59,819 nucleotides of DNA from the IMG/VR virus record IMGVR_UViG_3300044580_000450, positions 1 to 59,819 of that record; one strand, 5' to 3'. The notes beneath the pieces were generated by a model, which saw only the letters and a program-made list of their open reading frames with translations, was not told the origin of the DNA and ran no database searches. Shown here piece by piece: positions 44,734-45,432 of the stretch (position 1 is the first letter of the stretch; the number at the start of each line of letters is the position of its first letter). Source of the stretch: a virus (lineage: Duplodnaviria > Caudoviricetes). The position numbers were made by a program, and so were the translations under genes.

Positions 44734-44769
44734 AAAAAAAGGTGAAGGTCGCTAAGCGTCCCTCACCTT
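44734..44769 (-). terminator. Intrinsic terminator after the module RNAs
   Basis: AAGGTGAGGG..CCTTCACC followed by T7. Confidence 0.8.
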
Positions 44770-44777
44770 ATATATTT

Positions 44778-45023
44778 GCCGAGAACGATAAGAAGTGTGT
44801 TTTTATAAGTTTTCTCTTATTGCTCTCACCAAATTCAAACGACCTTGTACGTGATAAAAGACGCCAAAGGCACCGCACCTTCGGGAATTACGGCCTCTTG
44901 CGAGGATCTGAATTTAGCTTAAGAGAGCTGGAGTTGTTTAACCCTTGCGGATTAAATAACAGAACATAGTCAAATTGCATTTTGATTGCTTTTCTTACGA
45001 AGTATCACTGCTCTTACTACGGC
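44778..45023 (-). ncRNA. Module RNA e: clamp with a ~200-nt structured cargo
   Basis: GCCGTAGTAAG..GTGATACTTCG ... CAC..TTCTCGGC; GCAA tetraloop hairpins. Confidence 0.7.
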
Positions 45024-45035
45024 TCTAAAAACATT

Positions 45036-45345
45036 AAGTGAGAATCCTGGGTTGCGCGAGTTTAGGAGTTTTCTCTCCAAAGGATTTTATTCAACTCAGA
45101 CCCTTTTAATAACTGTCCTAAGTAAAGGATTTATGTGTTCGTCCTTCCAGCCTCCTTAGGTTCCTGACCTTTTTGAAACACTACCGAAAAAAAGCCCTGC
45201 ATTTCGCCTGACTTAACATAGACATAGTGTTCCTCATGCCACGTGCCGTTTACCTGATCATATAGTTACCAATTTGTACCGAGATACCCTCTCGAAGGTC
45301 GGCTTGCGCCAATAGATCGAAGTATCGCAACAACTTACTACACTT
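45036..45345 (-). ncRNA. Module RNA f: clamp with a ~260-nt structured cargo
   Basis: AAGTGTAGTAAG..GCGATACTTCG ... CGCAAC..TTCTCACTT. Confidence 0.7.
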
Positions 45346-45432
45346 TAATAAATCATTAATAAAAGAACGTTTTATTGTATTTTATGTATTTTTCGAAATT
45401 GTATATTAATATGGACTTAGCGACGAAAAGTT

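Follow-up and report, generated by a model that had tools for sequence, protein, structure and literature searches.

Among the large, ornate noncoding RNAs that are associated with phages and tRNA genes are GOLLD and ROOL, both of which are Rfam families. Both Y RNAs and Ro60 occur in animals and bacteria, and also in a few phages. In the accessible parts of the published descriptions, Y RNAs (i) are defined by a stem of the 5' and 3' ends that carries the Ro60 site, together with a second, effector module (Wang et al. 2018, bioRxiv 10.1101/312249), and (ii) are 80-130 nt in size (Chen et al. 2014, PMC4201824). Likewise from accessible text, a jumbo-phage survey places TROVE (Ro60) in 'a small subset' (PMC7824862), and the Ro60 of Thermus phage phiLo binds Y-like RNAs that are encoded upstream of its gene (PMC12135203). 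The stretch analysed here (the window) is a 59.8-kb fragment of 59,819 nt, IMG/VR virus record IMGVR_UViG_3300044580_000450. Its gap at 44734-45420 had been described in a first-pass annotation as holding two large clamp-bounded RNAs with a terminator of their own. These RNAs (RNA 1 and RNA 2) are proposed to be oversized relatives of Y RNAs, in which a common set of paired ends (the handle) would dock the Ro60 of the phage.

The gap is flanked by a NadR-like gene (46458-45433) and a 70-aa open reading frame (ORF; 44715-44503), both on the minus strand, and has a G+C content of 0.39-0.43 compared to 0.27-0.33 in the neighbouring sequence. In minus-strand order it holds a 310-nt RNA 1 (45345-45036), a 12-nt spacer that contains no terminator, a 246-nt RNA 2 (45023-44778) and an intrinsic terminator (Table 1). 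The lengths and spacing first given for the two RNAs prove exact to the base, and the three GCAA hairpins that had been read in them are all present (GGC-GCAA-GCC, 45310-45301; UUAAUCC-GCAA-GGGUUAA, 44955-44938; CCUC-GCAA-GAGG, 44905-44894). The second of these hairpins is dispensable, as a 19-nt deletion removes it in a relative of 97% identity. The strong terminator is also found: arms of 15 nt (44739-44753 and 44755-44769, 87% complementary) precede seven T, which gives the G+C-rich hairpin and U run of an intrinsic terminator at 44739-44769. A simple terminator scan does not list this hairpin because of its loop rule of 3-8 nt; the minimum free energy (MFE) fold forms it, and an analogous hairpin and T-run lie 3' of the homologue of RNA 2 in viral loci L225, L227 and L229.

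While RNA 1 and RNA 2 are otherwise unlike, they have the handle in common. Its 5' half is formed by GUAGUAAG, 7-8 variable nt and AUACUUCG, and its 3' half by the complement of the variable nt followed by NNNNNUUCUC; the bases outside both halves pair mutually (P1, which is AAGU/ACUU in RNA 1 and GCC/GGC in RNA 2). In most viral loci, the full order is P1a-GUAGUAAG-P2a-NUACUUCG-cargo-(A-rich strand)-P2b-CAAAUUUCUC-P1b. The MFE folds of both RNAs close P1 and P2 unconstrained, and the motif GTAGTAAG-N-GATACTTCG occurs in 2 copies in the gap compared to 0 expected from 100 shuffles. The two RNAs are not tandem paralogues by local alignment, which scores 27 compared to 31.6 +/- 5.7 for shuffles. 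The window has five further minus-strand copies of the 5' motif, at the head of and within its tRNA array, and the 5' motif alone is found at 109 loci in viral contigs, with numerous contigs bearing multiple copies. A 3' partner is identified by a loose rule for 71/108 distinct 5' matches and by a strict rule for 28/84, compared to 4/84 for shuffled downstream sequence. The elements are between 60 nt and several hundred nt long (median 125 nt); about 30 unpaired nucleotides of the handle are conserved, and its UUCG is invariant.

The handle is conserved, covarying and modular. Among 32 short-cargo members, all pairs of P1 (7/7) and P2 (7/7) change on both sides, and 87.7% of cells are paired compared to 36-52% when the partner is slid, a figure that is partly circular because the members were chosen by a script that requires pairing. 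Independent of this choice is the covariation of GUAG with CUC in 99 distinct elements: base 3 of GUAGUAAG and base 4 of UUCUC are A-U in 87, G-C in 12 and other in 0, while base 1 of GUAGUAAG and the last C of UUCUC are G-C in 89, A-U in 8 and other in 2. Thus, the terminal stem extends beyond P1 as G-C, one bulged U, A-U and G-C, which argues against D-arm-like and pseudoknot pairings. Consistent with this, the D-arm-like GUAG/NUAC and the pseudoknot GUAGUAA/UUACUUC show no both-side changes, and G1, A3 and G4 covary with CUC instead. A triple helix in which UUUCUC would lie on a purine-rich P2a was dropped, as many members, RNA 1 and RNA 2 among them, have a P2a that is not rich in purines; box C/D k-turn, bulge-helix-bulge, hammerhead and similar motifs do not match by their letters, and have no Rfam matches. 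The clamps of the first-pass annotation are genuine, with P1, P2 and GUAG/CUC covarying across the family; beyond what it claimed, they are the conserved handle of a large viral RNA family that adjoins a phage Ro60 gene.

A promoter-like box (CGTTCTTTT) lies ~16 nt 5' of RNA 1. An (A/C)GTTCTTT box is found 5' of the homologous RNAs (L225, L226, L229, L231, L232, L233, L234 and L236) and, in many loci, ~15-30 nt upstream of handle RNAs that are not preceded by a tRNA; GWTCTTT occurs within 50 nt upstream of 18/99 handle elements, compared to 63/5000 random 50-mers. Judged from its sequence and position, this box may be a phage promoter element.

Each cargo of the gap is a conserved, structured RNA type in its own right, and homologues in viral contigs retain the helices of both through compensatory changes. 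Diverged homologues of RNA 1 (U1 type) are found at eight or more other loci, and the consensus of the type (9 sequences) includes 27 pairs, 19 of which have compensatory changes. In the core, 6/6 pairs of the outer helix and 5/6 of the inner hairpin change on both sides among nine homologues; the six-pair helix has the general form NNNAAG/CUUNNN, and the hairpin loop CGAACACAUAAA is conserved. This core block is common to L005, L039 and L223, and the synteny of L223 matches the window (NadR-like gene, U1-type RNA, terminator and a homologous small ORF). A pattern scan of viral contigs for the U1 core detects only 4 loci, and homologues were better recovered by BLAST within whole related records. 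The cargo of RNA 2 (U2 type) has homologues in L225, L227, L229 and L233, with 85% identity between L227 and the 3' half of RNA 2; query positions 451-557 are likewise 85% identical to records G001 and G030. The stem of its most conserved hairpin is AUCCUG/CAGGAU in L229 and AACUUG/CAAGUU in L233, where an inner U-A is also replaced by C-G. Conserved loops of the two cargos are CGAACACAUAAA and GCGUCUnUAAUCACGUA. For the U2 type, both-side changes are seen at 9 pairs, and paired cells amount to 87.5%, compared to 31-50% after sliding; as this rests on five sequences and a hand-drawn structure, the covariation is supportive, not strong.

The U1-type RNA, U2-type RNA and terminator are also in tandem in L225, L229 and L233, while in L226 and L227 the U2-type RNA and terminator are preceded by another large-cargo element (the type of L012). 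The two cargos, which the first-pass annotation left unassigned, are two distinct conserved RNA types, and the tandem pair recurs in other phages. Two types are thereby added to the short list of large structured RNAs from phages. Variants of the locus are also observed. In L228, an ORF resembling a GIY-YIG homing endonuclease occupies the place of U2, the 3' part of which survives 3' of the ORF; in L236, a GIY-YIG-like ORF is in the same place and no U2 homologue is seen. In the deletion variant L230, all that is left between the NadR-like gene and the terminator is the terminal ~60 nt of the U1-type RNA and the U2-type tail.

Known families do not account for the gap. Rfam 15 (4227 models, GOLLD and ROOL among them) returns only tRNAs for the window at the gathering score and no match for 44734-45420 at E<=10, including transfer-messenger RNA (tmRNA), RNase P, signal recognition particle (SRP) RNA, 6S, group I/II introns, ribozymes and GOLLD/ROOL/OLE; ARAGORN finds no tRNA or tmRNA in the gap. 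The earlier statement that the cargo is not tRNA-like and is not recognized as tmRNA, SRP or an intron is borne out by these searches. Among 19 large-cargo loci, Rfam detects only tRNA-clan matches and two sub-threshold matches to YrlA, and YrlA matches in five big records are sub-threshold only; one full-length YrlA match is a tRNA dimer. No DNA similarity to GenBank phages is found. A scan of bacterial and archaeal genomes (596 Gb) with the short-cargo pattern yields 5 loci, all on contigs of metagenome-assembled genomes and 4 with model matches. A full-text literature search, within the text that the sources make accessible, yields no description of such a handle. As far as Rfam 15 and this search show, the handle and its junction architecture appear to be new, as do the variety of cargos and the size of 246-310 nt.

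The link of the handle to Ro60 is one of gene neighbourhood. A TROVE protein of 513-575 aa is encoded near handle copies in 10/10 handle-bearing records of at least 94 kb (5/5 and 5/5), while tblastn of the same protein matches only 79/50,697 GenBank phage records. In the forward direction, 4 kb was taken on each side of 80 TROVE loci. A rule-based script identifies full elements in 46/80 of these loci (72 elements, compared to 5 in shuffled DNA), and a covariance model built from the 32 short members (CM R1; cut-off E<=0.01) matches 73/80, with 140/140 matches on the strand of TROVE. The loci missed by CM R1 are L156, L165, L166, L178, L184, L202 and L220, most of which are truncated beside the gene. 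The same-strand adjacency holds across TROVE proteins that share only 36-39% identity with the query. Examples include (i) L155, where a tandem of four handle RNAs (two short, two whose cargo is YrlA-like) and a terminator are directly upstream of TROVE, (ii) L135, where a large-cargo and a short-cargo handle RNA are directly downstream, and (iii) LR745206.1, a 635-kb GenBank phage with one handle element ~450 nt upstream. No handle element is found at the TROVE locus of Vibrio phage phiKT1024. For the window itself, L176 aligns with the last 2 kb at 94.5% identity and places TROVE 2.0-3.7 kb past the window end; in L176, a short-cargo handle RNA precedes this gene by ~600 nt. Among solved structures, the L176 protein is closest to the phiLo Ro60 (PDB 9KOP/9L5Y, E 2e-18).

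With a conserved handle that adjoins the Ro60 gene in many huge phages, both RNAs look like oversized relatives of Y RNAs, and a probability of roughly 55% is assigned to the reading that they are giant Y-RNA-like RNAs whose handle would dock the phage Ro60. Confidence is held to this level because the conserved letters of the handle differ from the canonical Ro60 site, both RNAs are ~17 kb from TROVE by synteny with a 94-96% identical relative (their homologues are roughly 8-21 kb away) and docking is itself inferred. Several further observations weigh against it. In the accessible part of PMC12135203, CGAA defines the phiLo RNAs, and CGAA follows UUCG in only 7/32 members, with neither RNA 1 nor RNA 2 among them. 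The stem positions of YrlA never align with the handle, and all YrlA matches fall below the 69-bit cut-off. The 80 TROVE loci do not count as independent, since many are near-duplicates and nine gave seed sequences, and the proximity of handle and TROVE may reflect a common island, as handles, tRNA arrays and TROVE share one RNA-gene region. L230 is without most of both RNAs, which are thus dispensable in at least that phage. In size, both RNAs lie outside the range given for Y RNAs. RNA 1 is also not more stable than its shuffles (z +0.17; 52/100 equally good); RNA 2 is more stable (z -2.78; 2/200 equally good), and folding energy by itself is weak evidence for the structure of either.

RNA 1 and RNA 2 are probably transcribed together, with a promoter shortly before 45345 and the terminator at 44769-44734. 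The ends of each RNA pair through P1 and then G-C, a bulged U, A-U and G-C to form a long terminal stem, inward of which lie a conserved internal loop, P2, the junction strands (NUACUUCG and A-rich) and the exchangeable cargo. Under the Ro60-docking model, the handle would hold the phage's own Ro60 (TROVE) protein, while the 200-270-nt cargo would be an effector module that recruits or blocks another partner, whether protein or RNA. One handle with dozens of cargos in uncultured huge phages would then constitute a natural library of effector modules on one presumed docking site, and the combination of one protein, one handle and many cargos provides a route to asking what the phage Ro60 is recruited to in infection.

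An unlikely alternative in which the handle docks or stabilizes some other factor (a phage protein, an RNase or a modification enzyme) or protects the ends would attribute the proximity to Ro60 to a shared RNA-gene island. It fits the handles that lie inside tRNA arrays and directly after tRNAs, the T-loop-like motif within 50 nt upstream in 23/99, the kilobases between U1/U2-type RNAs and TROVE, and the lack of canonical Ro60-site letters; it fits poorly with the very tight same-strand adjacency across such divergent TROVE proteins and with the occurrence of TROVE in every large record against its low base rate, and no alternative partner gene is identified. More doubtful is a split splicing or processing element, in which the cargo is excised and its ends are joined, such that circular RNAs or restored permuted tRNAs result; an element in reversed order within a tRNA would amount to an ordinary intron, and permuted tRNAs would be opened at the acceptor loop. 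The ~30 conserved unpaired nucleotides resemble those of ribozymes, P2 juxtaposes both cargo ends, some permuted tRNA cargos encode CCA in the loop that seals the acceptor, and reversed modules occur within tRNA bodies that have free acceptor ends. Yet many permuted cargos are without CCA, known self-cleaving and self-splicing families of Rfam are unmatched, and the acceptor stem of YrlA is likewise sealed without splicing (10.1101/312249, in its accessible part). The D-loop insert is flanked (by eye) by A14, G15, G18 and G19 and so can persist as a tolerated expansion, while RtcB is absent from the complete handle-bearing genomes (0/5), a slight argument against joining with the help of a phage enzyme.

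Very improbable is that the handle halves are the DNA-level ends of a mobile cassette (recombination or transposition sites) with incidental RNA structure. Conserved ends around variable cargo would be expected of such a cassette, as would presence/absence and replacement variants of the kind seen in L230, L228 and L236; however, the covariation of P1, P2 and GUAG/CUC is strand-specific and tolerates G-U, all 140 matches are co-oriented with TROVE transcription, the elements are bordered by promoter-like boxes and terminators, and no recombinase is linked to them. It is scarcely credible that the gap codes for protein or serves the 70-aa ORF as a cis-acting leader (attenuator). The ORFs inside the gap are all short (30-75 aa), and those that might speak for coding include plus-strand ones of 75 and 57 aa; a leader could explain the terminator between the RNAs and the next ORF and the homologous small ORF after the U1-type RNA of L223. 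By contrast, the 19-nt deletion of the 97% identical relative falls inside the longest (75-aa) ORF, which speaks against coding, compensatory changes preserve RNA helices, and the same handle recurs in many unrelated contexts.

A wider role of the handle in huge phages, not only as a tag for Ro60 but as a means of sorting or joining RNAs in general, is also considered improbable. In its joining version, a permuted splicing element would circularize the cargo and assemble working tRNAs from back-to-front genes. In its sorting version, the handle would bring a whole set of RNAs together on Ro60, from chargeable tRNAs (handle in the D loop) to tRNA mimics and 250-nt structured RNAs; in this clade such sorting could take place in a vault-like shell, a suggestion drawn from a truncated major-vault-protein gene 2.6 kb from TROVE. 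This gene (L176:77-1360, ~2.6 kb upstream) encodes a 428-aa homologue with Pfam matches to MVP_shoulder (96.6 bits) and Vault_3 (38.5 bits) and aligns with residues ~461-810 of the major vault protein in PDB (E 1.8e-16). A vault-type protein that adjoins TROVE in a phage is unusual. As a general partner the major vault protein was rejected, as it is within 4 kb of TROVE in only 4/80 loci and is found in 1/5 big records (an 828-aa ORF in G002).

The sister elements of the tRNA array (Table 1) illustrate the range of cargo, the length of which varies from about 15 nt to >300 nt. The types, as parsed by eye, are (i) almost nothing, (ii) ordinary tRNAs, (iii) permuted tRNA-like modules, in which a loop seals the acceptor stem, (iv) a T-arm/acceptor minihelix and (v) large RNAs. 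In the window, the short-cargo element at the head of the array begins ~20 nt after a TAtaTTTG box, and the cargo of 39482-39589 has no acceptor stem (by eye). Both 38178-38314 and 38777-38878 have the 3' acceptor strand and N-CCA inside the loop that seals the acceptor: by eye, the former is ordered as T arm, ACCCCCU-G-CCA, loop, AGGGGGU and D arm, and the latter has UCCA within the loop. These permuted cargos look to be recently derived from real tRNAs. The handle of the tRNA-Met(CAU) at 37477-37611 is in reversed order (P2b, UUCUC, 8 nt, GUAGUAAC, P2a, AUACAUCG), and reversed-handle tRNAs are also found in L010, L035/L038, L060, L169 and L170. Such tRNAs have a CAU or GUG anticodon, free acceptor ends, an encoded CCA and a handle that is in, or replaces, the D arm; ARAGORN and Rfam give only a poor tRNA call here.

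Table 1. Features of the gap and sister elements of the tRNA array (window positions)
Feature	Position	Strand	Basis or score
Promoter-like box CGTTCTTTT, ~16 nt 5' of RNA 1	45361..45369	-	promoter-like, inferred
RNA 1 (U1 type), 310 nt	45036..45345	-	sequence, motif, MFE closure, nine-sequence consensus
RNA 1, 5' part	P1a 45345-45342; GUAGUAAG 45341-45334; P2a (UUGUUGCG) 45333-45326; AUACUUCG 45325-45318	-	
RNA 1 cargo core: helix CCUAAG/CUUAGG around GAGGCUG and hairpin AGGA-CGAACACAUAAA-UCCU	45117..45160	-	
RNA 1, 3' part	P2b CGCAAC 45056-45051; CCAGGAUUCUC 45050-45040; P1b 45039-45036	-	
Spacer AAUGUUUUUAGA, 12 nt, between RNA 1 and RNA 2	45024..45035	-	sequence
RNA 2 (U2 type), 246 nt	44778..45023	-	sequence, motif, MFE, 5 homologues
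RNA 2, 5' part	P1a 45023-45021; GUAGUAAG 45020-45013; P2a AGCAGUG 45012-45006; AUACUUCG 45005-44998	-	
RNA 2, most conserved hairpin: stem, GCGU/ACGU, loop CUUUUAUC	44842..44871	-	85% identity, covariation
RNA 2, 3' part	P2b CACUUCU 44797-44791; UAUCGUUCUC 44790-44781; P1b 44780-44778	-	
Intrinsic terminator, 15-nt arms then seven U	44734..44769	-	inverted repeat and MFE fold
Sister element, short cargo, head of tRNA array	40253..40331	-	CM R1 60.6 bits, E 1.8e-9
Sister element, tRNA-like cargo (GUU anticodon-like arm and T arm)	39482..39589	-	CM 34.7 bits; cargo by eye
Sister element, permuted T-arm/acceptor minihelix	38777..38878	-	CM 40.1 bits; cargo by eye
Sister element, permuted tRNA-like module	38178..38314	-	CM 33.1 bits; cargo by eye
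tRNA-Met(CAU), handle in D loop with reversed modules	37477..37611	-	free acceptor ends, encoded CCA

The window derives from a T4-like phage (Gp23 capsid protein, prohead protease and gp30.3) and has 33 tRNA genes on its minus strand (ARAGORN); its CheckV completeness of ~15% implies a genome of roughly 400 kb. Other long, handle-free gaps between the tRNAs (37987-38177, 38557-38686, 38954-39048 and 39664-39833, minus strand) are G+C-rich and hairpin-rich, and a weak tRNA match with a large insertion lies inside one of them at 39703-39765. The stretch from the first handle RNA to tRNA-Phe (40000-40250, minus strand) includes a strong terminator as well as a second TAnnTTTG box, again promoter-like, and an ORF of 33 codons. 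The NadR-like gene beside the RNAs belongs to a NAD-salvage set (45433-56159 and 19503-20069) that also includes nicotinate phosphoribosyltransferase (NAPRTase), an isochorismatase-type amidase, NAD synthase and a PnuC-type transporter of nicotinamide mononucleotide; next to this set is a gene (47394-49364) for a TonB-dependent-receptor-like product of 656 aa that has a signal peptide. Helpers of RNA metabolism and translation are a Thg1-like tRNA-His guanylyltransferase (22572-23312), an RNA/DNA-ligase-like protein (10445-11140), a PTH2 peptidyl-tRNA hydrolase (49376-49798) and a peptide deformylase (17665-18198).

Compared to known systems, GOLLD and ROOL are likewise large structured RNAs near phage tRNA genes; they differ in having no shared bipartite handle around an exchangeable cargo, and neither matches the gap at E<=10. 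Permuted tRNA and two-piece tmRNA genes resemble the sister elements in that the T arm and 3' acceptor strand precede the 5' acceptor strand, while the permuted module of the sister elements is enclosed by a handle and RNA 1 and RNA 2 have no tRNA-like part. The Yrl1/Yrl2 RNAs of phiLo (PMC12135203, in its accessible part) are similarly Y-like RNAs upstream of a phage Ro60 homologue, the closest solved relative of the TROVE of this clade; they are small, CGAA-defined hairpin RNAs, whereas the handle family has an invariant UUCG, with CGAA in 7/32.

The closest likeness is to Y RNAs and YrlA (RF02553). The handle family differs from YrlA by its GUAGUAAG, NUACUUCG, A-rich strand and UUCUC and by the second helix P2. 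The 69-bit gathering score of YrlA is not reached: the gap has no match, and the YrlA-core scores of handle cargos are 36.3 bits (the best sister cargo) and 31.8 bits, over model positions 23-87. RNA 1 and RNA 2 do not have the tRNA-like effector module of YrlA and carry cargos of 200-270 nt instead; at 310 and 246 nt they exceed the 80-130 nt stated in the accessible part of the Y RNA literature, and they lie ~17 kb from TROVE. Where Y RNAs carry the bulged Ro60-binding helix, the handle has a conserved single-nucleotide bulge of the 5' strand, but its conserved letters differ, CGAA is in only 7/32 members and the stem positions of YrlA never align with it. The long terminal stem of Y RNAs is found in both, as P1 and its extension covary and the MFE folds of RNA 1 and RNA 2 close it. 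The permuted tRNA mimic of YrlA (T arm, sealed acceptor stem and D arm) is seen in 38178-38314, L155 and L157. As a family, though for RNA 1 and RNA 2 the TROVE gene is outside the window, the handle RNAs resemble Y RNAs and YrlA in their tandem genes beside Ro60/TROVE on the same strand (73/80 TROVE loci), with the 5' and 3' ends in a conserved bulged stem and a second module that varies.

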